From assembly GCA_963706795.1 (NCBI GenBank), contig OY970170.1, positions 90,001 through 122,000 on the forward strand: a DNA stretch of 32,000 nt. The letters are read 5' to 3'. This document shows, in pieces, positions 873 to 27,439 of the stretch. Source of the DNA: Candidatus Saccharimonadota bacterium (GTDB taxonomy: Bacteria; Patescibacteriota; Gracilibacteria; BD1-5; UBA2023). Position numbers and translations under genes: made by a program. Each line of letters begins with the position of its first letter. The first letter of the stretch is position 1. The notes below the pieces were generated by a model. That model did not search any database. It worked only from the letters and a program-made list of their open reading frames with translations, and was not told the DNA's origin.

Positions 873-3800
873 ATGTTTCCAGACAAGAATTTAGAAAATT
901 TCCTCAACGATAAAATCACCGACTACTCTCAGATCGGTAAGCATGCTGGAAAGCGTGATATCACTGCAGGAAAAACCCTCGATAATCTCGCGGGTATCTC
1001 GATCGGACTCGCTTCAAAAGAAGAAGTTCGCGGACTTTCGTACGGAGAAGTTCTCATCTCTGAAACGATCAACTACCGAACACAGCGCCCAGAGCGCGGA
1101 GGTCTCTTCTGTGAGCAGATCTTCGGACCACGCAAAAACTACGAATGTGCGTGTGGAAAATACAAACGAATCCGCTACAAGGGTGTAGTTTGTGAGCGTT
1201 GTGGTGTAGAAGTTACGACTGCTCAGGTACGCCGTCAGCGAACTGGACACATCGAACTCGCCGCTCCAGTTGTACATATTTGGTACCTTAAGTCAGTTCC
1301 TTCTCGTATTGGTCTCCTCCTCGATATTTCTATCAAGAAGCTCGAACAGGTTATCTACTTCGCTTCGTACATCATTACTGAAGTCTACGAAGACAAGCAA
1401 GAATCAGCAGTTGCTGATCTCGAAAATGCCTACAAGACATCAAAGATTGATCTCCAAAAGCGCGTTCAGAAGGATCTTGCTGAAGCAAATATCCAGGTAG
1501 AAGAAAAGAAACTCTCAAAGAAATCATACTCTGAGCTCGAAGCTGCGCTTACGCACCAGATCGACAATCTCGATGAGGAATACGCTCACATGAAGGAACT
1601 CCTCAAGAGTCTCAAGGTTTCAACTGTTATCGGAGAACTCGACTACCGAATCATGTACGACAAATTCCCTCATGTATTTAAGGGAGGAACGGGTGCAGAA
1701 CATATCAAGACTCTCCTTGAGCGTATTGATATACGTGCATTTATTGCCGAACACCAGACTGAGCTCAAGACTGCTCCAAAGTCTAAGCAAAAGAAGATTC
1801 TCCAAAAGCTCAAGCTCGCGTCGAGTCTCTTTAAGTCAAATCAGCGTCCAGAACATTTTGTTCTTGAAGCGATTCAGATCCTTCCACCGGATCTTCGCCC
1901 GATGATTCAGCTCGATGGAGGACGTTTTGCGTCATCTGACCTCAACGATCTCTACCGACGTGTTATCAACCGAAACAACCGTCTCCGCAAGCTTATGGAG
2001 CTCGGAGCTCCTGAGGTTATCCTCAAGAACGAAAAGCGAATGCTCCAAGAAGCAGTCGACATGCTCATCAACGGTGATGTTCGTTCAAACCGACCAGGTT
2101 ATACAACTGCTACAAAGAAAAAGCTCAAGTCACTCGCTGATATCCTCAAGGGTAAGCAGGGACGTTTCCGTCAGAATCTCCTCGGAAAACGTGTCGACTA
2201 CTCAGGACGTTCGGTTATCGTCGTAGGTCCAAGCCTCAAGATGAACGAATGTGGACTTCCAAAGAGTATGGCCCTCGTTCTCTTCCGACCGTTCGTTATC
2301 GGACGCATGATTGAGAAAGAAATCGCCTACAATGTGAAGCACGCTGAAAAGATCATCGAAGATAAGGGAAAAGAAGTATGGGACGCTCTCGACGAAGTAA
2401 TTGAAGGAAAACACGTTCTCCTCAACCGAGCCCCTACTCTTCATCGTCTCGGTATTCAGGCATTCAAGCCAATTCTTATCGAAGGAAAGGCGATCCAGCT
2501 CCACCCTCTCTGCTGTACTGCGTTTAACGCGGACTTCGACGGAGACCAGATGGCGGTTCACCTCCCACTCACCAACGAAGCTCAAGAAGAAGCAGCGTCA
2601 CTCATGGTGACATCTCGCAACATGCTCAATCCAAGTAGTGGAGAGCCAATCGTTGCACCAGGTCTCGACATGGTTCTCGGTTGCTACTACCTTACAAAGT
2701 CAAACAAGACAGAAGCGATCAACTTTTCATTCTCTGACGGAAACGATGCAGAAAATGCATACGACAATGGAGTTATCAAGCTCCAGACTCCAATTCGTCT
2801 CCGAATGGATGGTGTTATCGTAGAGACAACATACGGGCGATATATCTTCAACCAGATTGTTCCTGCCGAGCTCGGATACGTTAATGAAACCCTCGGAAAG
2901 TCAGCTCTTAAGAAGCTCCTCTCACGATCGTTTGATATCCTCGGTTCTGAGCCAACAGCATTCTTCGCTGACCGCATCAAGAATATTGGTTTCAAGTACG
3001 CAACTCTCTCGGGTCTCTCTATCTCCAAAAATGACATGATCGTCCCTGAAACTCAGGACGAGCACATCAAGAACGGTGAAGAGCGAATCAAGGCAATCCA
3101 AAAGGCATTCTGGAACGGTCTCCTCACAGAGCGCGAGCGCTATGAGCAGTCAGTCAAGGTTTGGTCTCAGGTAAAGAACATCATCGAAAAGGAACTTAAG
3201 CCATACTACGACGACACAAACTCGATCTTTAATATGATCGACTCTGGAGCCCGAGGTAACTGGGGTAACGTCACTCAGCTTTGTGGAATGAAGGGTCTCG
3301 TTGCTTCTCCATCAGGAAAGACGATCGAACTCCCAATCAAGGCCAACTATAAGGCGGGTCTCTCAGTTCTTGAATACTTCATCAATACCCATTCAGGACG
3401 TAAGGGTAAGGCCGATACTGCCCTCAAGACCGCTCAGTCAGGATACCTCACACGTCGTCTCGTTGACGCCGCACAAAATATCCTCATCCGTGAGCACGAT
3501 TGTGGAACAGTTCACTACGAAGAAATCCACCGCGAAACTTCAAAGTCTGTCTTCCGCGAATCAATGGACGACAAGATGTTCGGTAAATTCCTTGCAAAGG
3601 ATGTCGTGATTGGTGGTAAGGTTATCATCGAAAGCGGAACAATTATCGACAAGGATGCACTCAAGATTCTTACTGAAAATGCGGTCGAGAGCGTATGCGT
3701 TCGTTCTATCCTCACTTGTGAGACAGAAGAAGGTGTATGTCAGAAATGTTATGGTCTCGATCTCGGTTCTAACCGCCTCGTTACAGAGGGAACTCCAGTT

Positions 3801-4892
3801 GGTATTATCGCCGCTCAGTCTATCGGAGAACCAGGTACACAGCTCACGATGCGTACATTCCACTCGGGAGGAGTTGTGAAGGAAGGAGGTGACATCACAC
3901 AGGGTCTTACTCGTGTTGAAGAACTCCTCGAAGCACGCAATCCAAAATACGAAGCACTCATCTCAGAAATCGAAGGTGAAATCGCTCAGATCCGATACGA
4001 AGGAAAGAGTCTCTTCATTACGGTTCAGGCAAACAAGATCGAGTCTTACGAGTTCTATCTCGCAGATGAGACATTCAAGCCGACAATAAAGGTTGGTGAA
4101 AAGGTCAACGAAAAGCAGATCATCGCGAAATCAAAGGAAACAAAGGGGAAGGTAGTTACTACGCACGACGGTATCGTTGAGCGCATCGACACGAACCTCA
4201 TCATCGTTCGCGATGAGAAGCCACGAACTGTAGAATACATCGTCATGGCCGGTAAGAACCTCCTCGTCAAAGAAGGCGACAAGGTCCGAGTTGGAGACAA
4301 GATCACTGAAGGTCATATCAATATCCAGAACCTCATGGAACTCGCTGATGCGATTACTACTGAGCTCTATATCGTTAATGACATTAAGGAAATCTACTCT
4401 TCTCAGGGTCAGACGGTTAACTCAAAACATATCGAACTTATTGTTCGACAGATGTTCTCAAAGATCAAGATCACCAACGCTGGAGATTCCTCTTTCTTCC
4501 CTGGAGATATCGTTGATATCATCGCATTCAAGAAAGAAAACGAAATCCTCGGACGTGAAGGAAAGCGCGAAGCCATCGGTACTCGCCTCCTCCTCGGTCT
4601 CACAAAGATCTCTCTCTTCACAGAGTCTTGGCTCTCTGCAGCATCGTTCCAGGAAACAGTCCGTGTCCTCGTTGATGCCTCTACTGCCAAAAAGATCGAC
4701 AAGCTCGATGGTCTCAAAGAAAACGTTATCATCGGACGCCTCATTCCAACGCTCAAATACTTCGAAAACAACCGCGATGTCGGTGAGTACTTCGGATCTG
4801 ACGATCCAGAGCTCGAGTTCGAATCACCATTCTCAAAGATGGCCCGACGAGAACAACTTCTCGAAGAATACGAACAGTCAATGAACGTCTAA
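873..4892 (+). CDS. rpoC: DNA-directed RNA polymerase beta' subunit (1339 aa)
   Basis: Single long ORF with a zinc-binding CACGKYKRIRYKGVVCERCGVEV segment and the catalytic NADFDGDQMAVHLP motif. It lies directly downstream of rpoB. I chose ATG 873 over the TTG at 816 used by the ORF track. TAA stop at 4890-4892. No in-frame TGA in 1339 codons. Confidence 0.95.
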   Translation: MFPDKNLENFLNDKITDYSQIGKHAGKRDITAGKTLDNLAGISIGLASKEEVRGLSYGEVLISETINYRTQRPERGGLFCEQIFGPRKNYECACGKYKRIRYKGVVCERCGVEVTTAQVRRQRTGHIELAAPVVHIWYLKSVPSRIGLLLDISIKKLEQVIYFASYIITEVYEDKQESAVADLENAYKTSKIDLQKRVQKDLAEANIQVEEKKLSKKSYSELEAALTHQIDNLDEEYAHMKELLKSLKVSTVIGELDYRIMYDKFPHVFKGGTGAEHIKTLLERIDIRAFIAEHQTELKTAPKSKQKKILQKLKLASSLFKSNQRPEHFVLEAIQILPPDLRPMIQLDGGRFASSDLNDLYRRVINRNNRLRKLMELGAPEVILKNEKRMLQEAVDMLINGDVRSNRPGYTTATKKKLKSLADILKGKQGRFRQNLLGKRVDYSGRSVIVVGPSLKMNECGLPKSMALVLFRPFVIGRMIEKEIAYNVKHAEKIIEDKGKEVWDALDEVIEGKHVLLNRAPTLHRLGIQAFKPILIEGKAIQLHPLCCTAFNADFDGDQMAVHLPLTNEAQEEAASLMVTSRNMLNPSSGEPIVAPGLDMVLGCYYLTKSNKTEAINFSFSDGNDAENAYDNGVIKLQTPIRLRMDGVIVETTYGRYIFNQIVPAELGYVNETLGKSALKKLLSRSFDILGSEPTAFFADRIKNIGFKYATLSGLSISKNDMIVPETQDEHIKNGEERIKAIQKAFWNGLLTERERYEQSVKVWSQVKNIIEKELKPYYDDTNSIFNMIDSGARGNWGNVTQLCGMKGLVASPSGKTIELPIKANYKAGLSVLEYFINTHSGRKGKADTALKTAQSGYLTRRLVDAAQNILIREHDCGTVHYEEIHRETSKSVFRESMDDKMFGKFLAKDVVIGGKVIIESGTIIDKDALKILTENAVESVCVRSILTCETEEGVCQKCYGLDLGSNRLVTEGTPVGIIAAQSIGEPGTQLTMRTFHSGGVVKEGGDITQGLTRVEELLEARNPKYEALISEIEGEIAQIRYEGKSLFITVQANKIESYEFYLADETFKPTIKVGEKVNEKQIIAKSKETKGKVVTTHDGIVERIDTNLIIVRDEKPRTVEYIVMAGKNLLVKEGDKVRVGDKITEGHINIQNLMELADAITTELYIVNDIKEIYSSQGQTVNSKHIELIVRQMFSKIKITNAGDSSFFPGDIVDIIAFKKENEILGREGKREAIGTRLLLGLTKISLFTESWLSAASFQETVRVLVDASTAKKIDKLDGLKENVIIGRLIPTLKYFENNRDVGEYFGSDDPELEFESPFSKMARREQLLEEYEQSMNV

Positions 4893-12341: not shown

Positions 12342-15300
12342 ATGTTTTCGCTCAAGAGGAATATTTCATGGATTACAATCGGCACGGTATTGTCGCTGGT
12401 CATCAGTTTCAATGTATTTGCCGTAGACTACGCAAATACAATCGGAATATATGGGACTTGATTCAACAATACACTGGATGCTGATGCCAATCTTATTTCG
12501 TCCGATTATTTCACGGGATATGTCGGGGATTACTGAACCAAGTACACTCCTCCACTATTCAATCCAGAGGAATCAAATCTCGTGATGAGTAATTTTACTG
12601 GGGTAATATGAGACTACGGAAGCAAATTTTTGCTTACAGAAGCATCTGGAAGCCTACTAAGCATAAACGATTTCAAGGGAACAATTGGTGACTATGGTTC
12701 AAAATTTGATCTCAATCTTCCAACAGGCCCACTACTCAGTTTCAATCAGTTCACTGGTAGTATCTGAGACTATGGTACTCAGTTTAGTAATACCCTCGAT
12801 CCATCAGTAAATTTATTACCTAAGGCAAAATTTACTGGTTATATTGGTGCGTATCAGGACGCCCCTCGCCTTTCGCAGTTCACCTCAGGTCGCGTAGACA
12901 AGCTGGATTTTCAGCTTGCAGCCGCTTCATCCGATCCCGAAAGCACAAAATGAATCCGCACACCAAATATTCATGCGGCAAAAAAACAAATAACAGAAGC
13001 GAGAAATGAGGTTGATCCCGTAGAGCTCTCCACAGGAGAATTCGTCTACGATAATACCCTCATGCAGTTCCCAAGCACGGGACTTGGGTACAATTTCAGT
13101 ATCAAATACCGCTCGCAGGTATCGTTCACTGGATCACTGGGTTATAATTGGACACACACATATGACAGAAAACTCTATCAGAACGCTGATGCCTCGGTAA
13201 CTTACCAAGATGGCGATGGAGCAATGCATACTTTCAAACCTTCGAGTGATGGATACGAATACCTCACTGGGTACGAAGCAAATCTCTCAAAGACTTCGTC
13301 TGGAGGATATTTGATCACATTCAAGAACGGAAACACAGAAACCTTCAACGATCAAGGTCTTACAACTCAGAGTGCAGATGCGAACGGGAATACTCTCACG
13401 TATTCGTACAACACACTCGGACAACTCACACTCGTACAAGATCGTTTCGGACGCACTGCGACATACGAATATACCGCTGCAGGATATATCTCTCGGGTAA
13501 CTGACAATACTGGAAGATCCGTGATACTTGCTTACTACGACGGAACAACCGCGGATGGATACGACGGAGATCTCAAGTCCATCATCTTGCATAATTCTGA
13601 AACGAGTGAGAAGACGATCGGATTCACGTATTTCAAATCCTCAGATCCAAGCCTTGCACACAACCTCATCTCACTCATCGATTCGAAGGGGCAAATCTAC
13701 GTCACAAATACATACGATACCAACGACCGCGTCCTCTCACAACACTACGGAGACGGGACTGGAAGCTTCGAATACACACTCGCAGATATCCATGCCGACG
13801 ATACACCAGCAAGCATCGGAAGCGGTGCAGTGATCGGGCAATATATCGTGAAAAACCATGCCACTGACAAGGAAGGAAATATCACTGAGTACACATACAA
13901 CCGCCTCGGTAATGTCATCAAGAAGGAAGTATTCGCAAAAGATGGTACAAGTAGCAATATCACCCGCTACACCTACGACACCGTTTGACGCATCACTGCC
14001 GAGATTTTCCCACGTGGGAATGGAACGGCATGGGGATACAACACTGCAGGTAAGAAAATCGAAGCACGACAGAAATCAGATATTTCAGCACCAAACAATG
14101 ACTCGCAGGATATCATCACACGATATTCTTACGATGCTACGACGAACAAACTGCTTACCACTACCCTTCCAGACGGCAGTGTCATCACAAATACATACGA
14201 CTCACGAGGCAATCTCACACGAGTCACTCAGGGCGGCGTAGTTCTCGCTCTTGGAGGATCGATGAACACGATCGCACAGGCATTTGTATACTCAGACCGC
14301 GGAGAAATACTCTCGACACAGGACGCAGAGGGGAACTTCACACAGTTTGCGTATTCGGGTGCAAACGTGATCCAAAAAACAACTGGATCATGAGCGAGTA
14401 CCATCACAGAATCATATTCCTATGATACTCACGGGAATCGCACCAGTCTCAAAGATGGTGAAAATAATACTACTGCCTACGAATACGATCCATTCGATCG
14501 TCTCATCTCAACTACCAGTCCAAAGTGAGTTCGTACCGAATACGGCTACGATGCGAACAACAACCGCCTCTTTGAGCGAGTACTCATGGGTACTGGTAAA
14601 ATTACCCAGACTCAATACACCTATGATATCCTCGATCAGGTCATCACAAAAACATCCGACATCGACACAACTCACACGCTCGCCGAGCGCACCACCTACA
14701 CGAAGAACGGAAAACCAAAAACCCTCACGATCGAAGGAGGTCCAACTAAGACATTTGTATATTCTCCAGATGAGAAAATCATCTCCGAGACCCTGAGTGC
14801 ATCTGGGATGACTTCAGCGGTCACGACCTACGAATACGATGCAAACAGCAATCCGATCAAGATCACTGATCCGCTCGGACGTATTACACGATCAGAATAC
14901 GATGGATTCGATCATCTGATCAAGACTATTTCACCAAGTGGAGTGAATACACTCTATAGCTATGACGTGCTTTGAAATCTCTCAAAAACTGAGACCCTCT
15001 CCCCTACTGGAGTTCGTCTGAGCCTGAGTGAAACCGTGACAAATTCTCTGAAGAAACCACTTGCGCAAACCCTCTACCAACTCGACATTCAAGGGAATGT
15101 TATCGCCTGAGCTGCGCACCGTACTCAGAAGTTCGCCTACAACAAAAACTCAGCCGTCATCCTCGAGACCAATCCACTTGGGGGAGTTACCAGCTCACAG
15201 TACAATTCACTCGGACAGCTCACGAGCAAAGTCGACCCCACGAATACCACGACCACCTATGCCTACAATCCTCGCGGTCTTGTCGCTCAGGAAACTACGA

Positions 15301-18122
15301 GTCTTTCTGGTGTAACACAGACTCGCACCACCTATGGATACGATCTCGACGGTCGCATGATCCAGTCGACTCGCTACGATGATCAAACTCCCGTCACAAC
15401 GCAGGTGACCTACGATGCGCTTGGTAATCCCCTCTCCCAGACCGACCCAGCAGGCAATATCACAACCCGCACTTTTGACCTGCGTGGTAAACTCCTCTCT
15501 GAGTCACAGAGTCTCTCAGGTGCACTCGTAACTACCAGCTACGAATACGATATCCTCGGCAACAAAACCAAGCTCATCGATCCAAAGTGAAATGCCACCA
15601 TCTACACCTACGACGGATTCGGTCGCAAAACTCAGGACACGCTTCCTGATGGATCGAAGACGTATTTCACCTACGATCTAGCGAACCAGCTCACCCAAAA
15701 GATCGACCCTAATGGTTCGGTATTTCATCAGACCTTTGACCTCGAAGGCCGCCTCACCGAGCGCACGATCGAGCGTGCCGCAGGTGTTGCAGGTGTAAAT
15801 AGTGAAACCTTCACCTACGACGCCCTGGGACGACTCACGAACACGAGCGACAACCTCGGTCACACCGTCGCACTCAAATATGATTCCCTCGGCAACAAAC
15901 TCGAGGAACTCAGCAACGGTCGCACGATCACGAACACATATAATCCTGCAGGAAATGCCCTCACGATAGGACTTCCTTCTGGCAAAAATATTACTCAGAC
16001 TTTTGACAATATCGGTCGTCTCACACATGTCGCAACGAATACTGGAGCGATTATCGACTACCAGTTTTCGGGAAATACGCTCACGAATACTCTCTACGGT
16101 AATGGAGTTACCCAATCACGCACCTACGATGGACTCATGCGTCTGGGGTCACTCAATGCAACCGCTTCATGAGCCACGAATATCAACCGCATCTACACCT
16201 ACGATAGCCTCGACAATATCCTCACTGATAGCCAAAGTACACACACCTACGATGCACTTTCTCGCCTCACGAGTTCGACTTCGAGTGTCCTTCCTATGGC
16301 CACTTCGAGCTTCAACTACGATATATCAGGCAATCGTACTACGCAACAAGCAACCAATGCACCACAGACGCTCTACGAGACTAATACACTCGATCAATAT
16401 ACTACCCTCTCAGGTACGAATACCGGCGTACTTCGTTATGATCTCAATGGAAATCTCCTAGAAAATACTCGATTTGTCTTCGTATATGATGCTCACAATC
16501 GACTGGTTTCGGTGAGCGAAAAGGTGGTAGATATCGTACCTCCTGCGACTGGAAGTGGCTCGACGGGAACTGGTTCTACTGGAAGCGGAGAAACCAGCAC
16601 GGGTTCTACGAATTCGGGAACTACAAACGAAACAGGAACTGGAACATGATCAACTGGAAGTGGATCGACTGGATCGGGAGAAATCCTTCCAGAGACGGGA
16701 ACTGGAAGTGAGAGTGGGACAGGTTCACAGAATTCTTCAGGAAGTACGTCATCAGGTATGACTTCAACGGGCGGGACACAGACAGGAAGCACCGAAACAG
16801 GATCGACTTCAACAGGTTCAACAGAAAGTGGTAGCACTTCCCTACCTGAGACGAATACAGGCGGGACTTCTACTGGTGAAACTGGAACAGGAAGTGGTAA
16901 TCTCACAGGCTCAGGCGTATCTGTCATTCCTGAGGTAGTGACAATCGGTTCAATCGAAGAAACGGGGACTGGAACGAATACTGGAAGTGGATACGCACTC
17001 CGACTGGTCGCCACATATAGTTATGACACTCTTGGTCGAAGACTCAGTAAGGATGTTGGACCAAAGCATGTAGAATATGCATATTCAGGAGAACAGCTCA
17101 TGTTTGAACGTGTGAGTGAGAATGGAGTGAGTGTAGATGCTGAATATGTATACGGTATCGGAGGAATGGACGATGTAATAGCTTCTGTGTCTTCTTCTGG
17201 AGATGTGAGGTATTTCTTACATGATCATCTGGGATCGACGGTTGGAGTGATGGATGGAAGTGGAGGGATGATTCAGGAGTATGCGTATGGAGTATTTGGG
17301 GATGTGCATGTGAAGAGTGGAAGTGGAGGGTTTGTGAGTGGTAGTTCGCTTATTACTTCGAGACTATTCACTGGAAGAGAATATGATGCGGAGACTGGAT
17401 TGTATTATTACAGAGCAAGAACGTATGATGCTGCTTTGGGTAGATTCTTGCAGAGAGATCCGATTGGGACGGATGATCAGGTGAATATGTATACGTATGT
17501 GAGGAATAATCCAATGAAGTGGGTTGATCCGAGTGGGATGAGTACAAAAGAGTTTATTGCAAAACACGATGCAACATCACTTTTGGAAAAATATATGAAT
17601 GATGCGCGAGACGAACTTAGTTTCGGATGAGTATTTCCAAAATGGGGGTACTCACAAATCGATTATGGCGTATGATCATTTTCAGCAAAAAAATGGAACA
17701 TAAAATATAACGTAGATTTCCAGACTCTTGCATTTGATCCTTCGAATAACAATCAATCTTGTGCGACCTATGGAAATAATTGAGCATGATGATGCAAAGT
17801 ATACATTGAGTGAGAATCTGTCGAACTCTCAGAATTATGAAATTTTCTAATTTGATATAATTGAGTTTACGCAGGTTATACCCTAAACGATCCTGATAAC
17901 GTTGCAGATATTTATAAATCGGGGATGTTTGTAGAATACAATTTAACAAATGAAAAATGAACAGATAGAACAAGGGAAGCTGCACTAAACGATGAGCTAC
18001 AGGATCGCAAATGGTATGATATTGGCTACAAAAAATGAGCCAGGGAAATGACTGCAAAATGGGGATTTCAGAGAGATCAAATATCACTCAAAGAGGCTAT
18101 TATTTATTGAAACACCCGCTAA
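12342..18122 (+). CDS. Rhs/YD-repeat polymorphic toxin with an N-terminal Sec signal peptide (1926 aa)
   Basis: A single frame (codon starts divisible by 3) is open from ATG 12342 to TAA 18120-18122 when 25 in-frame TGA are read as Gly. Signal peptide MFSLKRNISWITIGTVLSLVISFNVFA. There are dozens of YD repeats (YxYDxxG[RN]L). The Rhs core end reads RFLQRDPIGTDDQVNMYTYVRNNPMKWVDPSGM and is followed by a 193-codon C-terminal tip (CT1, 17541-18119). Confidence 0.9.
12432..12890 (+). repeat. Six tandem repeats of about 26 aa, F-[TK]-G-x-[IV]-G-D-Y-G-[ST]-[KQ]-F, in the Rhs N-terminal region
   Basis: The units are TIGIYGTGF, FTGYVGDYGTKY, FTGVIGDYGSKF, FKGTIGDYGSKF, FTGSIGDYGTQF and FTGYIGAYQD. 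Equivalent Gly positions are encoded by GGN in some units and TGA in others (12459, 12534, 12609, 12765). Confidence 0.8.
16545..16992 (+). repeat. Gly/Ser/Thr-rich low-complexity insert (about 150 aa) inside the Rhs repeat region
   Basis: Degenerate short tandem DNA repeats (actggaagtgg/tcgac-type) encode TGSGSTGTGSTGSGETSTGSTNSG...GTSTGETGTGSGNLTGSG. They lie between YDAHNRLVSVSEK and ATYSYDTLGRRLSK. The minus-strand P/V-rich ORF 16493..17014 is its antisense shadow. Confidence 0.85.
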
Positions 18123-18123
18123 T

Positions 18124-18399
18124 ATGAAACAATCATTAAAGAAAATCAGAATAGCAATAATCTATTTGCTTGTAGTATTGCCGTTTCCATTTATTTATTA
18201 TGAATTGGGAATTTTCTTATTTACATTTAGTTATCAACATATCTTCATTTGTTCAACTCCAATGGGATATTGTGGCGAAGAAGAAATTAAGAGTCTGTTA
18301 TTTTCAATAGTCACAGCTACAATATTTATCTCAGTAATATATTACTTGGTATTTCGCATACTAAAGTGATACATCGATAGCAAATCAAAAGACATATAG
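18124..18399 (+). CDS. Small membrane protein (91 aa); candidate immunity protein for CT1
   Basis: The ATG lies 1 nt after the Rhs TAA (cgcTAAtATG). Hydrophobic segments IAIIYLLVVLPFPFIYYELGIFLFTF and LLFSIVTATIFISVIYYLVF. It reads through TGA 18367 to TAG 18397-18399. Confidence 0.6.
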
Positions 18400-18419
18400 G
18401 TATATATTGGACAAAGATT

Positions 18420-18890
18420 ATGCAAAAAATTACATTCCTTCTGTTTAGCACTCTTTTAGCACTAGTACTTATTAAGTTTACTTTTAGTTTATTCAAGGAA
18501 AGCCCTGTTAACCTTGCCATAACAACAAATAATACTGATGCTCAGACTTTAGAAGGTTTTCTTGCAGAGCTCAAAGCCTCTGGACTTATTTGTGAGGATA
18601 GCGGACAAGTAACTTTTTATATCTTGGATAATACTAAGTCTAAGGTAGTAGGTAAGGCGACCTGAGATACAGAATCAAAGATCATAGGAATGTGCAAGAA
18701 ATATTGAATTGCCGAAATATGGAAACAGAATGATTATATACTCTTCTCAATGCTTGGTCCTATTAGATGACATGGATTTCTACGTTACTATTCCGATAGG
18801 ATTCCAAAAGATATACAAGACAAAGGAGTAGACGGCGAGCTCAAAGCAGTAAATTCGAATTGGATACTTGTTACACCAACTCCAAATTAA
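18420..18890 (+). CDS. Signal-anchored or secreted protein (156 aa), second gene of the CT1 cassette
   Basis: Begins MQKITFLLFSTLLALVLIKFTFSLF. Track ORF 18420..18665 extends through TGA 18663, 18705 and 18768 to TAA 18888-18890. No family recognised. Confidence 0.55.
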
Positions 18891-19918
18891 GACAGGCGCT
18901 CAGCAAAAAAACTGAGGATGAAGTAAATACAACTACTGAGTATGTATACGGTATCGGAGGAATGGATGATGTAGTAGCTTCTGTGTCTTCTTCGGGAGAT
19001 GTGAGGTATTTCTTACATGATCATCTGGGATCGACGGTAGGAGTGATGGATGAGAGTGGAGAGATGATTCAGGAGTATTCGTATGGAGTATTTGGGGATG
19101 TGCATGTGAAGAGTGGAAGTGGAGGGTTTGTGAGTGGTAGTTCGCTTATTACTTCGAGACTATTCACTGGAAGAGAATATGATGCGGAGACTGGATTGTA
19201 TTATTACAGAGCAAGAACGTATGATGCTGCTTTGGGTAGATTCTTGCAGAGAGATCCGATTGGGACGGATGATCAGGTGAATATGTATACGTATGTGAGG
19301 AATAATCCAATGAAGTGGGTTGATCCGAGTGGGATGAGTACAAAAGAGTTTATTGCAAAACACGATGCAACATCACTTTTGGAAAAATATATGAATGATG
19401 CGCGAGACGAACTTAGTTTCGGATGAGTATTTCCAAAATGGGGGTACTCACAAATCGATTATGGCGTATGATCATTTTCAGCAAAAAAATGGAACATAAA
19501 ATATAACGTAGATTTCCAGACTCTTGCATTTGATCCTTCGAATAACAATCAATCTTGTGCGACCTATGGAAATAATTGAGCATGATGATGCAAAGTATAC
19601 ATTGAGTGAGAATCTGTCGAACTCTCAGAATTATGAAATTTTCTAATTTGATATAATTGAGTTTACGCAGGTTATACCCTAAACGATCCTGATAACGTTG
19701 CAGATATTTATAAATCGGGGATGTTTGTAGAATACAATTTAACAAATGAAAAATGAACAGATAGAACAAGGGAAGCTGCACTAAACGATGAGCTACAGGA
19801 TCGCAAATGGTATGATATTGGCTACAAAAAATGAGCCAGGGAAATGACTGCAAAATGGGGATTTCAGAGAGATCAAATATCACTCAAAGAGGCTATTATT
19901 TATTGAAACACCCGCTAA
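18860..19918 (+). CDS. Orphan Rhs fragment 1: last ~130 aa of the Rhs core plus a toxin tip identical to CT1. No ATG start; probably silent
   Basis: Homology to the main gene begins at EYVYGIGGMDD (18940). The fragment contains the DPIG...DPSGM core end and then the same tip as 17541-18122. The frame is open only from 18800, the first ATG is internal, and TTG 18860 is the only possible start. TAA stop at 19916-19918. Confidence 0.6.
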
Positions 19919-19919
19919 T

Positions 19920-20195
19920 ATGAAACAATCATTAAAGAAAATCAGAATAGCAATAATCTATTTGCTTGTAGTATTGCCGTTTCCATTTATTTATTATGAA
20001 TTGGGAATTTTCTTATTTACATTTAGTTATCAACATATCTTCATTTGTTCAACTCCAATGGGATATTGTGGCGAAGAAGAAATTAAGAGTCTGTTATTTT
20101 CAATAGTCACAGCTACAATATTTATCTCAGTAATATATTACTTGGTATTTCGCATACTAAAGTGATACATCGATAGCAAATCAAAAGACATATAG
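19920..20195 (+). CDS. Duplicate copy of the 91-aa membrane protein (candidate CT1 immunity)
   Basis: Translation is identical to 18124..18399 at offset +1796. Confidence 0.6.
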
Positions 20196-20215
20196 GTATA
20201 TATTGGACAAAGATT

Positions 20216-20686
20216 ATGCAAAAAATTACATTCCTTCTGTTTAGCACTCTTTTAGCACTAGTACTTATTAAGTTTACTTTTAGTTTATTCAAGGAAAGCC
20301 CTGTTAACCTTGCCATAACAACAAATAATACTGATGCTCAGACTTTAGAAGGTTTTCTTGCAGAGCTCAAAGCCTCTGGACTTATTTGTGAGGATAGCGG
20401 ACAAGTAACTTTTTATATCTTGGATAATACTAAGTCTAAGGTAGTAGGTAAGGCGACCTGAGATACAGAATCAAAGATCATAGGAATGTGCAAGAAATAT
20501 TGAATTGCCGAAATATGGAAACAGAATGATTATATACTCTTCTCAATGCTTGGTCCTATTAGATGACATGGATTTCTACGTTACTATTCCGATAGGATTC
20601 CAAAAGATATACAAGACAAAGGAGTAGACGGCGAGCTCAAAGCAGTAAATTCGAATTGGATACTTGTTACACCAACTCCAAATTAA
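20216..20686 (+). CDS. Duplicate copy of the 156-aa signal-anchored protein
   Basis: Translation is identical to 18420..18890 at offset +1796. Confidence 0.55.
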
Positions 20687-21699
20687 GACAGGCGCTCAGC
20701 AAAAAAACTGAGGATGAAGTAAATACAACTACTGAGTATGTATACGGTATCGGAGGAATGGATGATGTAGTAGCTTCTGTGTCTTCTTCGGGAGATGTGA
20801 GGTATTTCTTACATGATCATCTGGGATCGACGGTAGGAGTGATGGATGAGAGTGGAGAGATGATTCAGGAGTATTCGTATGGAGTATTTGGGGATGTGCA
20901 TGTGAAGAGTGGAAGTGGAGGGTTTGCGAGTGGTAGTTCGCTTATTACTTCGAGACTATTCACTGGAAGAGAATATGATGCGGAGACTGGATTGTATTAT
21001 TACAGAGCAAGAACGTATGATGCTGCTTTGGGTAGATTCTTGCAGAGAGATCCGATTGGGACGGATGATCAGGTGAATATGTATACGTATGTGAGGAATA
21101 ATCCGATGAAGTGGGTTGATCCGAGTGGGATGAAAGGGAAACCAGCTACGCCTGAAAGGAAGTATGATGTAACTGAGATGGTGTTGTTTATATACGATTT
21201 ATCCCTAGAGAATACCGATTGATTTAATTTTTTTGTATTTAAGGAAGGTACAAAAAATGGCTGAGCTTTTGACATCAAAAGAAACTCATATATAGCTACT
21301 ATGGCAGCAAAGAATAATGGTATTGTTTACTTCGATTGACAAGCAGTTGAGCCTTCTAATTTAGGAAATTTGTTAGCAGGATTAAATATGAAGAACAGTT
21401 ATTTACCATCTTCATTGGTACGTAATAAGTTTATGGAAGTCGAGATAGACAATGCAACTAACGAGTGATACTGAAAATACGCGGAAGAAATTGCTAAATA
21501 TGATGAGCATAGTGATGAGGTTTGGTACGATGCATGAGAAAATATTTACAACACTTACACCAATGCGAGTACCAGGCAAGAAAAAATAGACACTATTCGA
21601 AATGCAATAACAAATACAACTCCAGAATACAAGAGGCGCTCAAACGAAGAGGGAGTAAAAAGAAAGTATTACAAAGATTTAATCAATAACCAAAACTAG
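20656..21699 (+). CDS. Orphan Rhs fragment 2: Rhs core end plus a divergent toxin tip CT2 (188 codons)
   Basis: The core piece is the same as in orphan 1 up to VDPSGM, then new sequence: KGKPATPERKYDVTEM... It continues through TGA 21220, 21262, 21337, 21466, 21472 and 21535 to TAG 21697-21699. CT2 shares motifs with CT1 (VYFDGQAVEPSNLGNLLAGLN vs VYIEGESVELSELGNFLIGYN; WYDAG vs WYDIG). Confidence 0.65.
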
Positions 21700-21702
21700 C
21701 AT

Positions 21703-21933
21703 ATGAAATTACTACGATCTTTTAGCACTGTAAGCATCTTTATTGTTGCGTATCTAATCACTTACAAAATCTCCTATCTTGCCATTCATAAATATATATT
21801 TCCATTCAGGTATGCTGATGATTTAGATTCAGTAGTACACAGTAGCCTACTTGCATTTTTTATATCAATTTTATCTGGATTTTTTCTAGCCTATCTTGTG
21901 TATAGAAAACTTACGCATCAAAATCGAATCTAA
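21703..21933 (+). CDS. Small two-TM membrane protein (76 aa); candidate immunity for CT2
   Basis: The ATG lies 3 nt after the CT2 TAG. Hydrophobic segments VSIFIVAYLITYKISYLAI and LLAFFISILSGFFLAYLVY. TAA stop. Confidence 0.6.
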   Translation: MKLLRSFSTVSIFIVAYLITYKISYLAIHKYIFPFRYADDLDSVVHSSLLAFFISILSGFFLAYLVYRKLTHQNRI

Positions 21934-22326
21934 GGGGATGTGTATATGAAGAGTGGAGGTGGGGGGTTGTAAGCAATGGAGTCAGCCTCATTCATTTGAA
22001 GAATAGTCTGTCAAAGTGAAACATTTTCTGTGGATAGTATTTATGATGGCGGACTAGAGATTGAGAAAGTTGGTTATGCAAAATACAATCCAACGTTATC
22101 GAGAGATCAAATAGAGCAACGAGCGCTGGCAGATGAGTTACCAGATCGTGCTTGGTACGATGTCTGATACATGTATGCCACAGGACAAAAAGAAGGTACT
22201 ATCAGTTTATCAATGTCTAATGCAATGAAAGTAGGAAATAAAACTAGTAAAGATCAATTAACAAGAGTAAATCAACTAATAGATCAAGCATGCTGATCAA
22301 ATCAGCAATGTCGTCTATCTCATTAA
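21934..22326 (+). pseudogene. Degraded orphan 3: a ~34-nt stub of the Rhs core (GDVYMKSGGGG) followed by the C-terminal part of a third toxin tip (CT3)
   Basis: ggggatgtgtatatgaagagtggaggtgg resembles the core sequence ggggatgtgcatgtgaagagtggaagtgg (GDVHVKSGSGG). There is an in-frame TAA at 21970. The downstream frame encodes ...RDQIEQRALADELPDRAWYDV[TGA]YMYATGQ..., homologous to the CT1 tail REAALNDELQDRKWYDIGYKKG. TAA stop at 22324-22326. Confidence 0.6.
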
Positions 22327-22336
22327 TTTAAATTAT

Positions 22337-22645
22337 ATGCGTAAATTTATTTCTATCTTTGCGAAGTTCTGCCTGTTCCTAATTATTCTTTTTGAAGCTG
22401 GAGGATTTGTGTTTCGTACTCATGAATACATTGCAACTAAAATACTAATGTTATATCAGCCTGATACATTGTATTATGGCCATGGATTTGAAATTGGCAT
22501 TGTATCAGGCCTACTCCTCTGAATCCTCTGAGTTTACTGATTCACAAAAATAGATAAGAAACTAACGGATCGATACTGATTACTTCCTGATGTATTAATT
22601 ATTGCAGTTACCTTTGCGTACATTTGAATGAGGATTTGGCTATAG
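22337..22645 (+). CDS. Small three-TM membrane protein (102 aa); candidate immunity for CT3
   Basis: Track ORF 22337..22522 extends through TGA 22520, 22529, 22538, 22577 and 22625 to TAG 22643-22645. Hydrophobic segments FAKFCLFLIILFEAGGFVF, IGIVSGLLLGILGVYGF and LLPDVLIIAVTFAYIGM. Confidence 0.55.
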
Positions 22646-22693
22646 CAATAAATTTAGAATAAAAGGATTGGGGCAATCGAGAGTATGAGTCAC

Positions 22694-22736
22694 TAAAAAA
22701 AATCCCCGCAACTCTCACGAGTTGCGGGGATTTTTT
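22694..22736. terminator. Bidirectional terminator between the Rhs locus and the convergent peptidase operon
   Basis: Perfect 12-bp stem: TCCCCGCAACTC (22703-22714) pairs with GAGTTGCGGGGA (22719-22730), loop TCAC. Flanked by A8 on one side and T6 on the other. Confidence 0.9.
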
Positions 22737-22741
22737 CCTCC

Positions 22742-23968
22742 TTATCCATTCATCGCCCGATAAATCAAACTCGCAACCTCACCTCTTGTGAGTGGTGCAT
22801 TAGGGTTGAAACTTGCACCGGACTCCAATGCATCATTGTCATTCGCCCAAACTATGTGCGGGAAGAACCAGTCGGTTGTCTTTACGTCGGGGAATGGTGA
22901 AGTTGCTGGCGTGCCAGGTTGTACACCAAGAAGTCCGAGGACAATTTTAAGACCTTCTACGCGAGTCACTGGAGCATTAGGTCGGAATGTACCATCTGGG
23001 TAGCCACCGACCGTTCCAAGGGCATGGGCGGTGTTTACGTATGACAAAAATGCATTGCCGACAGGTACGTCCGAAAAGTATGTGGTCGTGTCGTTTGTGA
23101 GGGATTTCTTAGAGGCATTAAATGCCATCTTGAGGATCTCTCCCCTGCTTACATTCGCATTTGGGAAAAATCGACCATTCTGGCCTGATGCGATACCATG
23201 ACTCTTGATAAAAGCCACTGCCGGAGCATAGAGATAGCTCGGTGATACATCACTAAAAAGTACATCATCATCGCCAGAAGTCACTGGAGTGGTAATCGTG
23301 ACCGTACTTGCTACTTCAACGGTTGGCTTCGGTGGAGTGACTACTGGAGTCGCGATGGGCGTGACAACTGGAGTGGGAACAGAAGGAGTCGGCGATCCGC
23401 CAACACGATCCAAAAATACGAGTGGATTCACTGTATAACGCACGCCGTTCTCGATACCAAGACCGCGATTTACTGCTTCCATAAAGCCGAGTCCGAGGGT
23501 TTGTGCATCCTTAAAACTAAATGGCCAATACGGATGAAACGGCGCATCCGCAACATCGATCTGAAAATGCAGATGTTCACCAGTCGACTGACCAGTATTG
23601 CCGGTTTTACCGATGATATCGCCTTCTTTGACTGTTTGCCCTTTGGTTACAGAGAGCTCTGAAAGATGAAGATAATTTGAGTAATACGTCGCTTTTTTGC
23701 CAGTTGCGGGATCGAGGACATTGTCGTGTTGGATCACTACAAAATTCCCATCTGCGGCATTCGTTCCTGCGGCAAATATTGTGCCATTAAGTACTGCATG
23801 GATCGGATCATTCGGAGACATTGGTACGATATCGACACCAGGATGGCTTCCAGAATTTTCGTCGTAGTCGCCTGAGACGTAATTGCCGAGATAGACCGTT
23901 GTGTAGGTCATAAAGAGTGTCGCGAGCTTCGTTGGATCGTAGGGTTTTGGTGTTCGGATTGGGTACAT
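22742..23968 (-). CDS. M23 family metallopeptidase with three C-terminal SLH domains (408 aa)
   Basis: M23 motifs HPGVDI and GEHLHFQI, then a P/T/V linker, then three S-layer-homology-like repeats (FSDVSPSY...FFPNANVSRGE; FSDVPVGN...GTFRPNAPVTRVE; FPDVKTTDW...FNPNAPLTRGE). No in-frame TGA. No recognisable signal peptide at the N-terminus, and a TAA lies 9 codons upstream of the ATG. Confidence 0.85.
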   Translation of the reverse strand: MYPIRTPKPYDPTKLATLFMTYTTVYLGNYVSGDYDENSGSHPGVDIVPMSPNDPIHAVLNGTIFAAGTNAADGNFVVIQHDNVLDPATGKKATYYSNYLHLSELSVTKGQTVKEGDIIGKTGNTGQSTGEHLHFQIDVADAPFHPYWPFSFKDAQTLGLGFMEAVNRGLGIENGVRYTVNPLVFLDRVGGSPTPSVPTPVVTPIATPVVTPPKPTVEVASTVTITTPVTSGDDDVLFSDVSPSYLYAPAVAFIKSHGIASGQNGRFFPNANVSRGEILKMAFNASKKSLTNDTTTYFSDVPVGNAFLSYVNTAHALGTVGGYPDGTFRPNAPVTRVEGLKIVLGLLGVQPGTPATSPFPDVKTTDWFFPHIVWANDNDALESGASFNPNAPLTRGEVASLIYRAMNG

Positions 23969-24010
23969 AGCAAGAAAATTATCACAGCAATATTAGTCTA
24001 TAATGCACAC

Positions 24011-24844
24011 TTATCGAATCGATTTCATCGGAACATTTGCAAATCCGGTCTGATCTTGGATTTCTTCTGCCGAAGGATTTTTTTCGGAAGCACTCGCAGA
24101 CTCGATAATCGGAGTATCGATGACCGGAGGGGCTACCTGAGTGGACGTGGTAGTCGGAGTTTGTACATCAGTCCTGAGAGTAATGCGATCCATAGTCGCT
24201 GTCGTTTGCACACGATTTTTGAGATCTTCTTTTTGCTCTGGAAGCGTTGCCGAAAATATCTTGTCTGCGAGCCGATCAAGCCATGCAATAAATTTGTGGC
24301 TCGAAAATCCCGCTAAAAATGTAAATACGGCGTACATATAGATACTCTGGATGCTGATATCACTCCCAACAGCAGAAGCTCACTGGAGGACACCAAGACC
24401 GCTTCTCGCGATAAAAAATGCGATGATTCCGAGTACACTCGAGAGTACTGGCTGGATAAAGAACCAATAGACCCAAGTATGATTAAATCGCCCAACATAG
24501 ACTTCAACCGGCACAAGACGTTGGAATTCGGTATTTGAGATATGCCCTTGTACATAATCACCGTAAGCGACCGTGTAGATATTTGCGTATTTTACACTCT
24601 GATAGAAATCCTTAATCATAAATGACACGCCGCCCAAAATAGCCACCGAAAGCATCAGACAAATCACCTTCACTTCGCGCACTACGCTCTCAGGGAGCGT
24701 ATTTGTGCCAGTCAGTGAGAAGAAACGATTGATATCAAAGGCTACGGAATAGATCGCAACGCGGTATGCAATATACAGGAGCAATCCAATCCACAGGATG
24801 ATGACGAGCTTCGCGATGGTATTTTTTAGTTCGAAACGGTTCAT
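24011..24844 (-). CDS. Four-TM membrane protein with a Thr/Pro-rich C-terminal tail (about 277 aa)
   Basis: It joins track ORFs 24380..24859 and 24011..24337 (same frame) through the TGA codon at 24380-24382. ATG 24844 (MNRFELKNTIAKLVIILWIG...) is preferred over TTG 24859. TAA stop at 24011-24013. Confidence 0.65.
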
Positions 24845-26916
24845 GTGGCTGTGGTTCAAAGAATAGAGCCTTCTGGCGTATCTTCCGTGATTTCTGATGG
24901 ATTGATGCGAAATTTATAGTCATCTTCTACAAATCTTCCCTTGAGTGCCGAGAGACAGCGTACCATATTTTCGTGCCAATTTTTAGGACTCGAAGCATAG
25001 ATCGGCTTGTCCTTGTTGCCCCATCGTGAGAGATCACTGAGGTTTTGGTATTTACCGAGGAATTTATTATCGAGTGTCTTCCCCATCCAGTAGATACCAT
25101 CTCGTGGTGAGATAAAGGCAGAAGTATCGCCCGAGTCAGTATTGCCGATATTACCAATATTGTACTGTGTTTTGAGGCTGCGGCCAAGACCAGTTTCAGC
25201 AAGTCCGATACACATGAGGAAACTTGGATCGATCTTCGCCTCGACCGCTTCTTCGGTCCACACATCCCAACTCTGAAAATCAGAGGAAGCATAGGTCTTG
25301 AGGAGATATTTTTGACGATCGATTTCAGTATCACCAACGATAGAGAACGTATTGTATTTGTCTGTATTGGCCATGTATCCGTAGCGGAGCTTGAGGTCTT
25401 CGACAAATTTATATTTGTACTTAGTAGCGAGCGACTCAAATCGGAGCTTTGTTAGGTCGAGGAGACGGAGTGGATCGATAGACTCGCGATTTTTATGAAC
25501 TTCAAAATGTACATGAGCTCCACTCGTCATGACTCCCGCACCCTTCGTTCCTGGTGCCCCACCGGACTTTGCAAATACCTGACCCTTATCAATAAAGTCG
25601 AATTTCTTGGCTGTGATTTCGCTGACATGTCCATAGACCGTTACATAGCCATTGGCATGCTTGAGTGCAACATAACCATACCCCTTGAGCGTTGGCTCAT
25701 TGATGTAATAGACATATCCTGGAGCTGGCGCAACAATGTCGGTCGATTGATCAGCTGGAATATCAATCGCTTCATGTTCTGACCCGACAGATGCGTAGTA
25801 GTCAGCATCATGGAAATATGCAGAAACATATTTTGGCGCAACGGGCCATTCAAATGGATTGGCGACTGTATCATCAAATCCATGATCTCTGAGATTTTTT
25901 TCTGCGTCATAGTATGACTTGAGGTCAGCACACTGAATATTCTTTTTGTCTACGATCACGCCTCCATCAGTACTAAGTTTACAGTGGTGTCGATCAGCTA
26001 CTTCGCGGAATGCTCCATCATAAGCGCTGATTGCCGCTGTTAAGCGATCCTCGACTTTTTCTTCTTGGGCTTGATGCTCGGAGATATATTCATTAAATAC
26101 AGATTCTTGCCCCTGAGTGAGTTCGAGAAGCTGGAGTTTGTAGCCCTTTTGTTCATCGAGTTCGACTCGCTTGGTCTCGAGGTCCTTTTTAAGAAGAATA
26201 ATCTTGTTTTTTTCTTCTTTGAGCTCAGCAGTTCGGACATAGTAGTCCTTTACGAGCGAACGACGTTCTTCGATGAAATTCTGTCCCGTGATCTCGAGGA
26301 CGGACTTAAAATGGATATCTGAGAGAATATCCGAGAGATTTCCATCTGAGAGCACGAGCGTACGGATGACATCGACCTTGTCCTCACCGTCATAGACCAT
26401 ATCCCCCTTGGAATAAATATATGAGAGATATCCAAGAATTGCCTCTTTATTTGAATCGATTTTTTCTTGAAGGACAGCAATATTGCGGATCGTATCAGCG
26501 ATATTTTTGTTTTTATCTCGGATCATTTCTTCGGTATCAGCAACTTTTTGCTCGTTTGCGGCGATATCCGTATCGAGCTCTGCAAGCATGCTAGTGAGCG
26601 TAAACTTACGAGTCGTTACGGCGAGTTTTTGTTCTTTGAGCGAGTCCTTCGCATCAGCAATTCGCTGCTTCATCTGCTCGAGAACGCGGATTTGAGATTC
26701 GCTGTCAAAGATTCCGTATTCTTCTTGTGCGGTAAATGGCGCATTTTCAAAGAGGATTTCTTTTTCGCTGTCCTTAAAATTATCAAGGATCTGAGCAGTC
26801 TTTGATTTTTTGATCCCAACGAAGCTGTTGGGATCTTCTCCTGCAAAAACCTGATATCAGATAGTGCTAAAGAGCGTAGTGAGCGTTATCGCAATGGCGA
26901 GTGTTCGACGGAACAT
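24826..26916 (-). CDS. Secreted coiled-coil M23 peptidase with an extra C-terminal lysozyme/glucosaminidase-like region (about 696 aa)
   Basis: Track ORF 24856..26673 extends upstream through the TGA codon at 26857-26859 to ATG 26916, giving signal peptide MFRRTLAIAITLTTLFSTIGYQVFA. In-frame ATGs at 26943 and 26973 are alternative starts. It extends downstream through the TGA codons at 24856-24858 and 24841-24843 to TAA 24826-24828. There is a long coiled coil, M23 motifs HEAIDI and GAHVHFEV, and a C-terminal IGLAETGLGRSLKTQYNIGNIGN region. Confidence 0.8.
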
Positions 26917-26978
26917 GTGGATTGGTTTTGTTTGTGTATTCATGGCTTTAGCAATACTAGCACAGTATCCCATGGAGT

Positions 26979-27007
26979 TCAAAAAAACTCCTTGACGGAG
27001 AGGAGTT
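26979..27007 (-). terminator. Terminator-like hairpin on the minus strand, just upstream of the peptidase gene
   Basis: The minus strand reads AACTCCT-ctccgtca-AGGAGTT followed by T7. The plus-strand arms are 26986-26992 and 27001-27007. A second copy of GGAGTT at 26974-26979 could form an alternative pairing with 26986-26991. Confidence 0.55.
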
Positions 27008-27009
27008 CT

Positions 27010-27439
27010 GTGTTGTTGTGACTATAATTGCCTGCCTCAGTGGTTACTGAGTTTTACCTCCTCCCAACTCCACATACTCATCCGTATTTTTTTCGTTTGC
27101 TGTGGAACTCGCAAGCCTCTCGTGATGGAGATCGCCCTAAGTCCTGTTTTGTGAATTAACTGACTTTAGAGCCTTTGCTCGCACAGTCCTCGCGGCACTG
27201 CAAGAAATCGGATGATATGGGAGTGGGAGTGTGAATGAAAGAAGTTTCAGTTATTCAAAACTCTCTAATCTTCCATCGCAGCGCGGCCGTGATCGATCCG
27301 ATTTCTTTTTGTGCAGTGAGGCACCTAGACAACGAGGAAGGTTTTATTAATCAAATCTCTACCCTTGTCGAACAAACAAAAAGAAACGGACGATCGCGTG
27401 ACAGCGAGAAGCAATAAGATTCAGGAACAGCAAGTTCCC
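27010..27439. other. Unassigned structured noncoding region of about 430 bp (candidate ncRNA or leader; strand unresolved)
   Basis: No convincing ORF under either code. A 20-bp interrupted long-range helix pairs 27061-27083 (ctcccaactccacatactcatcc) with 27210-27229 (ggatgatatgggagtgggag). A local hairpin lies at 27036-27051. A perfect TATAAT sits on the plus strand at 27023-27028, and a minus-strand terminator lies at 26979-27007. Confidence 0.3.

Follow-up and report, generated by a model that had tools for sequence, protein, structure and literature searches.

Classical rhs loci of E. coli, Salmonella and Dickeya comprise a main gene followed by orphan toxin/immunity cassettes, and in established Rhs biology the protein is exported, cleaves itself at the core end and delivers an encapsulated tip. 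Here, we analyzed a locus of this type in a 32,000-nucleotide (nt) stretch of contig OY970170.1 from a Candidatus Saccharimonadota bacterium (the window, to which all positions refer unless a contig is named), with emphasis on its C-terminal toxin tips, CT1, CT2 and CT3, and on the small membrane proteins encoded directly behind them, imm1, imm2 and imm3, which we consider candidate immunity proteins. The locus is a classical Rhs main gene with an orphan toxin/immunity array. It shares with the known loci the DPxG[LM] core end, the sharp divergence at this motif, a small (here, candidate) immunity gene of its own after each tip and orphans that retain a stretch of core for recombination. It differs in its host, a small-genome bacterium with glycine encoded by TGA (TGA=Gly), in an Rhs protein with a Sec-type signal and no PAAR or VgrG context, and in an orphan that exactly duplicates the main tip module.

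Membrane-anchored immunity is established for other toxins. Colicin M and TelC are enzymes that attack lipid II outside the cytoplasmic membrane, and their immunity proteins, Cmi and TipC, are membrane-anchored. The logic proposed here, a hydrophilic enzymatic toxin opposed by outward-facing membrane-anchored immunity, is the same, but these toxins have no sequence, motif or fold similarity to the present tips, and their immunity proteins carry folded external domains, whereas the present candidates are bare hairpins. In Tse5 (RhsP1)–Tsi5 of P. aeruginosa, an Rhs-delivered tip is likewise accompanied by a small integral-membrane immunity protein (PMC9637101, PMC10684867), the role for which ours are candidates; the tip Tse5-CT is hydrophobic and pore-forming with a glycine zipper, whereas the present tips are hydrophilic with enzyme-like invariant charged residues. 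For the tips themselves, the relevant described family is Ntox44 (PF15607), which Zhang et al. (PMC3482391) defined as all-alpha with the motifs DxK, GNxxxG and DxxxD, listing no immunity family for it. Examples are TseR of Y. pseudotuberculosis and WP_013404495 on the P. damselae plasmid pPHDD1. Pfam and literature labels give Ntox44 as a predicted ribonuclease (RNase), and a review describes, second-hand, the PAAR–Ntox44 protein TseR as a divalent-cation-dependent RNase cleaving single-stranded RNA (PMC13577199). A literature search on TsiR retrieved no relevant paper.

Translation of the window depends on the reading of TGA. Under table 11 the region is fragmented and its longest open reading frame (ORF) has 1373 codons; with TGA as a sense codon, the longest reaches 1931. 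In-frame TGA codons number 25 in the Rhs ORF and 12 among the 193 codons of CT1. In alignments of CT2-type homologs with known DNA, TGA columns held GGN-encoded glycine elsewhere in 10 of 26 cases, the most frequent state, and tryptophan in none (0/26), and the tryptophan of the WYD motif was encoded by TGG without exception. Because TGA columns pair with GGN glycine and never with tryptophan, TGA in the window is, on this alignment evidence, glycine and not tryptophan (code 25). Usage of the recoded codon is heavily skewed toward the low-GC toxin/immunity array: rpoC (873–4889, 1339 codons) has zero TGA codons, against the 25 of the Rhs gene.

By sequence, CT1, CT2 and CT3 are significantly related, beyond chance: BLASTP aligned CT1 with CT2 at 38% over 79 amino acids (aa; E = 5e-7) and with CT3 at 42% over 50 aa (E = 9e-9). 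The initial annotation of this stretch had proposed one polymorphic family of three tips. The family holds, as do three related types, but the actual count is four, the module of CT1, imm1 and the accessory gene orfX being duplicated. An exhaustive profile search of 1.84 billion representatives retrieved 12 related proteins, all tryptophan-rich where the window has TGA or glycine, which assigns all 12 to TGA-recoded organisms. The profile was built from TGA=Trp database versions plus TGA-free fragments, a design that biases the search toward recoded relatives and may have hidden canonical Ntox44 matches. The family comprises at least 14 relatives elsewhere and, in a Trp-to-Gly-corrected alignment, falls into two subfamilies. 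The CT1-like subfamily (CT1, CT3, P0011, P0013 and P0014, plus L005:3-623 and L006:3-155) is marked by N-x-[KR]-Y and, in most members, by a Cys-x9-10-Cys insertion; the CT2-like subfamily (CT2, P0002, P0004–P0010 and P0012, plus P0015 and P0016) is marked by [FY]D[IL]KRN and a charged helical tail. Common to both are F.G..VEpS.LGN.L.G.N, an invariant Glu and A..DE..D..WYD.G; conserved across the clade are Asp/Asn-x-Lys, a GNxLxGxN helix and DExxD......G. Invariant positions are occupied, as in enzymes, by charged or polar residues (D, K, E, DExxD). The tips are hydrophilic, with a grand average of hydropathicity (GRAVY) of -0.5 to -0.8 and a maximum 17-aa Kyte-Doolittle window of 0.61–0.68; they contain no hydrophobic window, and hydropathy found no transmembrane (TM)-like segment in tip relatives from the homologous contigs (L-loci).

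All that word-indexed searches returned were code-4 translations of these genes or of related ones (with CT1 as query, nothing beyond the same sequence in TGA=Trp translation), and a genome and metagenome contig search with the tip alignment gave no confirmed relative, its sole pattern being the DExxD..WYD block, with tblastn disrupted by TGA codons. Tblastn of CT1 against plasmids yielded chance matches only, NCBIfam scans of all tips and small proteins nothing relevant, and a PDB sequence search with the tip profile nothing below E = 0.1. An AlphaFold2 model of the CT2-like P0016 (TGA=Trp version, 15-row alignment; predicted local distance difference test (pLDDT) 87, predicted template modeling score 0.82) shows seven helices, some of them long, and one beta hairpin just ahead of the GN helix. 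A Foldseek search of PDB and BFVD with this model yielded nothing at E < 0.6 and no pore-forming domain. The tips appear to be a lineage-restricted clade of hydrophilic, mostly alpha-helical and putatively enzymatic domains. Most CT1-like tips carry a Cys pair (SCATYGNNGAGGC; CT1 residues 74–86, window about 17760–17800). In addition, residues 72–102 of the CT1-like consensus, covering the beta-hairpin and GN-helix region, reached 21.3 bits (E = 2e-4) with Pfam DUF7713 (PF24828), just under its cut-off of 24.1; for this family, we found nothing in the literature.

A resemblance to 'polymorphic toxin type 44', loosely suggested in the initial annotation, proved to be a real lead, and the annotation's label 'unassigned' for the tips is too strong. 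Sub-threshold Pfam Ntox44 matches came from both subfamilies (E values: CT1, 0.032; P0016c, 0.03; P0011c, 0.13; P0014c, 0.28), and that of P0016c spans profile positions 7–103 of 104; CT2 and CT3 gave no match. The three motifs nevertheless stand in Ntox44 order in CT2 (FDIK, GNLLAG, DEHSD) and in CT1 (NIK, with Asn for Asp, GNFLIG, DELQD), and the truncated CT3, which has neither DxK nor GN motif because the N-terminal half of the domain is missing, retains DELPD. We assembled a canonical Ntox44 set from plasmids, with the pPHDD1 gene of PMC6312309 as the starting point. Common to seven canonical sequences are WDHK, D[VI]WSN[IV]HYG[YF]VG and DDxxD with a Gly seven residues on, a spacing that recurs in CT1 (DELQDRKWYDIG). 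With a lower maximum accuracy (MAC) threshold, the hhalign alignment of the tips to these seven spanned 166 columns and brought all three motifs into register (score 19.7, E = 0.047; column-shuffled controls, mean 11.6, s.d. 2.4). A hidden Markov model (HMM) of five canonical sequences placed real tips at ranks 1, 2, 3, 5 and 9 among 4816 sequences (16 real tips and 4800 shuffled decoys).

On these grounds, we consider the tips likely to be remote homologs of Ntox44 that fall short of family membership. Like Ntox44 domains, they are C-terminal tips of polymorphic toxins, including Rhs proteins, of matching size, with a fold predicted (for the tips, from the P0016 model with its one beta hairpin) to be largely alpha-helical and the order DxK, then a [GS]NxxxG[YF]xG helix, then D[DE]xxD with Gly seven residues later; they also share the lack of a defined immunity family and a membrane-anchored protein as the next gene product. 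The homology statistics are modest, and several results count against the assignment. All members miss the Ntox44 gathering cut-off of 24 bits, the matches obtained scoring 12–15 bits (best, CT1 at 15.0 and P0016c at 15.1), compared with 70 bits for the P. damselae Ntox44 protein as positive control. CT1-like tips have Asn at the Asp position of DxK, and the histidines of WDHK and SNIHYG, conserved in the seven canonical sequences, are missing from the present tips. Default hhalign aligned only the last, C-terminal motif (E = 0.018), a weak result; 11 of 792 column shuffles reached the real score of 19.7, a permutation P of only about 0.014; and the reverse HMM search was not significant. Further differences are the Cys-pair insertion of 12–16 residues in CT1-like tips, the extra C-terminal helical tail of CT2-like tips, immunity candidates that are hairpins of 72–102 aa rather than the roughly 150-aa single-anchor proteins of Gram-negative loci, and the occurrence of the present clade in TGA-recoded lineages only.

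Behind the tips, separated by 1 nt (CT1–imm1), 3 nt (CT2–imm2) and 10 nt (CT3–imm3), lie small ORFs of 91, 76 and 102 aa. The code-25 coordinates, gaps and sizes in the initial annotation are correct throughout, and the tip motifs it quoted are present in the translations. Its description of the small proteins as mutually dissimilar with two to three TM segments likewise agrees with our data: by Kyte-Doolittle windows, imm1 and imm2 each have two TM-like segments and imm3 has three, and no significant similarity exists among the three proteins. At local base composition, an open frame of 76, 91 or 102 codons has a chance probability of 0.011, 0.005 or 0.002, respectively. Such TM ORFs are conserved beside homologous tips in five other contigs (L001, L002, L003, L005 and L006): wherever a relative has downstream DNA, a small hairpin ORF lies 3–30 nt past the tip or overlaps its stop (Table 1). 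L005 and L006, with a CT1-like tip, a hairpin, an orphan CT2-like tip and a second hairpin, reproduce the order of the window.

The imm2 family pairs with tip subtype. Imm2 matches the second L006 hairpin (L006_1263) at 58% over 50 aa (BLASTP E = 6e-19, composition-adjusted) and is 41% identical to its homologs in L003 and L005; the common pattern is Y.[FY]K[IF]S...I[HL].YIFPFR[FY].DD[LG].S. Hairpins with the FPFR loop follow CT2-like tips (window, L003, L005 and L006), and the L001 and L002 hairpins are linked to the family by the intermediate L002_4752. Cys-pair-loop hairpins stand after all three CT1-like tips seen (window, L005 and L006) and after two CT2-like tips (L001 and L002); imm1 and the hairpins after other CT1-like tips have only their architecture in common, namely two TM segments and a Cys-x7-12-Cys loop. 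Across the hairpins, the two ends carry basic residues and the loops have acidic residues or a Cys pair, a distribution that, by the positive-inside rule, predicts both termini inside and the loop outside. Together with the Cys pairs of CT1-like tips, those of imm1-type loops hint at disulfides and an extracytoplasmic encounter of tip and hairpin. Behind the orphan hairpin paralog of L002 lies a gene for a 127-aa protein with 4–5 TM segments (L002 5034–5417), which may be another immunity type.

Table 1. Coordinates of the Rhs locus features in the window and of hairpin ORFs in homologous contigs.
Feature	Position	Strand	Remarks
Main Rhs/YD-repeat toxin gene	12342–18122	+	1926 aa, code-25 translation
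DPSGM, Rhs core end (DPxG[LM] self-cleavage motif), toxin-swap junction	17526–17540	+	Copies at 19322–19336 and 21118–21132
CT1, CT1-like tip, hydrophilic	17541–18119	+	193 aa; stop 18120–18122; motifs N-I-K, LGNFLIGYNG, DELQDRKWYDIG
imm1, CT1 immunity candidate	18124–18399	+	91 aa; 2 TM (possibly 3); Cys-x8-Cys loop (about 18250–18275)
orfX, accessory gene in duplicated unit	18420–18890	+	156 aa; single N-terminal hydrophobic segment
Orphan 1, Rhs core-end fragment + CT1b	18913–19918	+	First in-frame ATG 18962; CT1b (19337–19915) identical to CT1
imm1b, imm1 copy	19920–20195	+	Identical to imm1 in sequence
orfX, second copy	20216–20686	+	Identical to first copy in sequence
Orphan 2, Rhs core-end fragment + CT2	20709–21699	+	CT2 at 21133–21696
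CT2, CT2-like tip	21133–21696	+	188 aa; stop 21697–21699; motifs FDIKRN, VEPSNLGNLLAGLN, DEHSDEVWYDAG
imm2, CT2 immunity candidate	21703–21933	+	76-aa 2-TM hairpin; conserved loop YIFPFR[YF].DD[LG].S
CT3 remnant, 5'-truncated CT1-like tip	21973–22326 including stop (21973–22323)	+	ATG 21976; keeps C-terminal DELPDRAWYDVG half only
imm3, orphan immunity candidate	22337–22645	+	102 aa; 3 TM-like segments
Hairpin ORFs in relatives	L001 688–939; L002 3588–3854		2 TM; after CT2-like tips
Hairpin ORFs in relatives	L003 579–797; L005 1779–2000; L006 1263–1484		2 TM; imm2 homologs after CT2-like tips
Hairpin ORF	L006 177–437		After CT1-like end
imm1-like hairpin in L005			Between CT1-like tip and next orphan
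Orphan hairpin paralog	L002 4752–5021

Canonical Ntox44 loci offered a comparison for this arrangement. Our sample was small and entirely plasmid-borne; seven of its nine intact loci, with two further degenerate loci outside this count, have a membrane-anchored protein after the Ntox44 tip. The product of the following gene in P. damselae, T. succinifaciens (after VgrG), E. asburiae and K. pneumoniae is a 150–157-aa protein with one N-terminal hydrophobic segment; the E. asburiae and K. pneumoniae tips are PAAR fusions inside type VI secretion system (T6SS) clusters. In three Streptomyces/Kitasatospora plasmids, the following gene encodes a conserved 2–3-TM protein of 67–103 aa as annotated. 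The S. meliloti and Kitasatospora NBC_00039 loci had no obvious partner. Between lineages, the partners show no sequence similarity, and this would account for the absence of a defined Ntox44 immunity family. Because seven of nine intact loci show it, membrane anchoring of the putative immunity protein appears typical of the family, a trait hard to reconcile with the RNase assignment. We did not find this pattern stated in the searchable literature, to which the primary TseR paper did not belong. The initial annotation regarded membrane-embedded immunity as unusual for a cytosolic nuclease-type tip. For Ntox44 it appears not to be, and no soluble immunity is known for this family; membrane immunity is well known among membrane-acting toxins, for instance Tse5 with Tsi5 (PMC9637101).

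The reading that we favor, with moderate confidence, is that the tip acts at or crosses the outer face of the cytoplasmic membrane and that the hairpin neutralizes it there. A single full-length Rhs protein bearing a Sec-type signal heads a tandem series of promoter-less orphan core-end/tip cassettes. Every cassette retains its own candidate immunity gene, and the hairpin membrane proteins would provide the cognate immunity. The Rhs cage is predicted to be exported and would cleave itself at DPSG-M (between DPSG and M), and the encapsulated tip would be delivered to a neighboring cell, steps for which the Tse5 structure (PMC10684867) is one basis. There, the tip would work at, or cross, the outer face of the membrane, where the short acidic or Cys-stapled external loop of the hairpin, rather than a partner in the cytosol, may intercept it. 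Several findings weigh against this reading. The TM calls come from hydropathy only and the topology is predicted; alignments of imm1 with other hairpins are collinear but not significant after composition correction; for imm3, we found no relatives; and the CT1 model, although its order of elements is that of the P0016 model, has a pLDDT of only 63. An envelope-acting toxin also conflicts with the RNase activity, directed at a cytosolic target, that is reported for TseR (PMC13577199), the one Ntox44 effector with reported biochemistry.

This last conflict leads to the strongest alternative, which we regard as distinctly less probable, namely that the tips are true Ntox44-type cytosolic RNases and the hairpins membrane-tethered immunity proteins that either hold the tip at the inner face, using their basic cytosolic tails or their TM helices, or keep it from being imported. 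The sub-threshold Ntox44 matches with motifs in register agree with it, as do the predicted-RNase label of the family and the second-hand description of TseR (PMC13577199), and metal-dependent phosphodiester hydrolysis would be compatible with the conserved acidic residues. However, the hairpins expose almost nothing to the cytosol beyond short basic tails, the canonical Gram-negative partners have the usual periplasm-facing design of one N-terminal hydrophobic segment followed by about 130 residues, and the Cys pairs of imm1-type loops and CT1-like tips suggest an oxidizing, extracytoplasmic setting.

A membrane-depolarizing or pore-forming activity of the type of Tse5-CT, EsxX or the pore-forming colicins, with the hairpins as classical membrane immunity, is improbable. 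As a rule, toxins of that class are paired with small polytopic membrane proteins that confer immunity (Tse5–Tsi5, PMC9637101; EsxX, PMC12744356), imm1, imm2, imm3 and all their homologs have the 2–3 hydrophobic segments expected of integral-membrane immunity (by hydropathy only), and the P0016 model contains long helices. The tips, however, lack hydrophobic or glycine-zipper helices, their hydropathy values being those given above, their invariant residues are charged or polar and enzyme-like, and the Foldseek comparison returned no pore-forming domain; the absence of hydrophobic helices together with charged invariant residues makes a pore-forming toxin unlikely.

Least probable of all is that immunity resides in orfX or elsewhere and that the small TM ORFs serve in release, lysis or export or have no function, being favored merely by AT-rich DNA. 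T-rich DNA easily gives hydrophobic ORFs, homologs with statistical support are lacking for imm1 and imm3, and orfX, with its N-terminal anchor, is designed like the gene after canonical Gram-negative Ntox44 and has a 155-aa analog at the same position in L002. However, orfX-like genes are not constant partners: neither the CT2 and CT3 modules nor L003, L005 and L006 have one, while a hairpin ORF is always there, imm2 homologs keep 41–58% identity while the toxins diverge, L002 has an extra orphan hairpin paralog, chance accounts poorly for such ORFs (0.002–0.011 each), and the hairpins persist beside orphan and truncated tips, as immunity genes do. Scans of Pfam and NCBIfam gave no family match for orfX, and we saw no sequence similarity between it and the N-anchored proteins of L002 and the canonical Ntox44 loci.

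The main gene encodes, in order, an N-terminal signal-peptide-like segment, DUF6531 (Pfam, 54 bits), RHS repeats (RHS_repeat, 261 bits in nine stretches), a Gly/Ser/Thr-rich insert, the core end and CT1. The insert, a low-complexity segment also rich in Glu (TGSGSTGTGS...; window 16500–17000, Rhs residues about 1395–1560), lies just ahead of the core end and is unusual inside an Rhs shell. The core end reads NPMKWVDPSGM ahead of the variable tip at all three copies. Copies 2 and 3 differ by two mismatches up to 19337/21133 and diverge from 19338/21134, just beyond DPSGM (ending at 19336/21132). Positions 17284–19099 and 19080–20895 are 100% identical, a tandem period of 1796 nt that leaves the CT1, imm1 and orfX module in duplicate. 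This perfect 1.8-kb tandem duplication is either a very recent event or reflects collapse or expansion in the assembly; 18 mismatches lie within the initial ~170 nt of the repeat (17117–17283). Across the array (~17000–22700), GC content falls from about 0.48 to 0.34–0.39 and GC skew turns from negative to strongly positive, shifts that are consistent with imported or fast-evolving cassettes.

Housekeeping neighbors of the locus are rpoB/rpoC and the leucyl-tRNA synthetase gene. Directly 3' of the array, two proteins assigned as M23-type peptidases by reading their translations only are encoded on the reverse strand (22745–23992 and 24829–27021), one with SLH-like C-terminal repeats and the other with a long coiled coil. 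Searches of the window found no tRNA and no Rfam match.

The type of system seen here is already known, and what is new is the lineage-restricted, sub-threshold Ntox44-like clade of tips. Added to it, as candidate immunity proteins, are one well-supported hairpin family (imm2) and a recurring Cys-loop hairpin type (imm1), and, beyond this lineage, what appears to be a wider pattern of membrane-anchored Ntox44 partners. For TGA=Gly bacteria, here probably of a Gracilibacteria/Absconditabacteria-type lineage, which are uncultured or barely cultured and whose means of attacking hosts or rivals are largely unknown, the locus provides a defined candidate toxin–immunity pair. Ntox44 is widespread in T6SS, type VII secretion system and Rhs toxins and has been without a recognized immunity family since 2012, and the membrane-anchored neighbors found nearly always after the Ntox44 tips sampled bear on where these toxins act and how they are neutralized. 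As a tentative and rather doubtful extension, Ntox44-type tips as a whole may not be neutralized in the cytosol, either because their substrate lies at the outer face, in which case the 'RNase' label would be wrong or incomplete, or because immunity blocks their passage through the membrane. If true, passage-blocking immunity would be a mode undescribed for nuclease-type polymorphic toxins, and the 72–102-aa hairpins of TGA-recoded bacteria would represent the minimal form of such an immunity protein.

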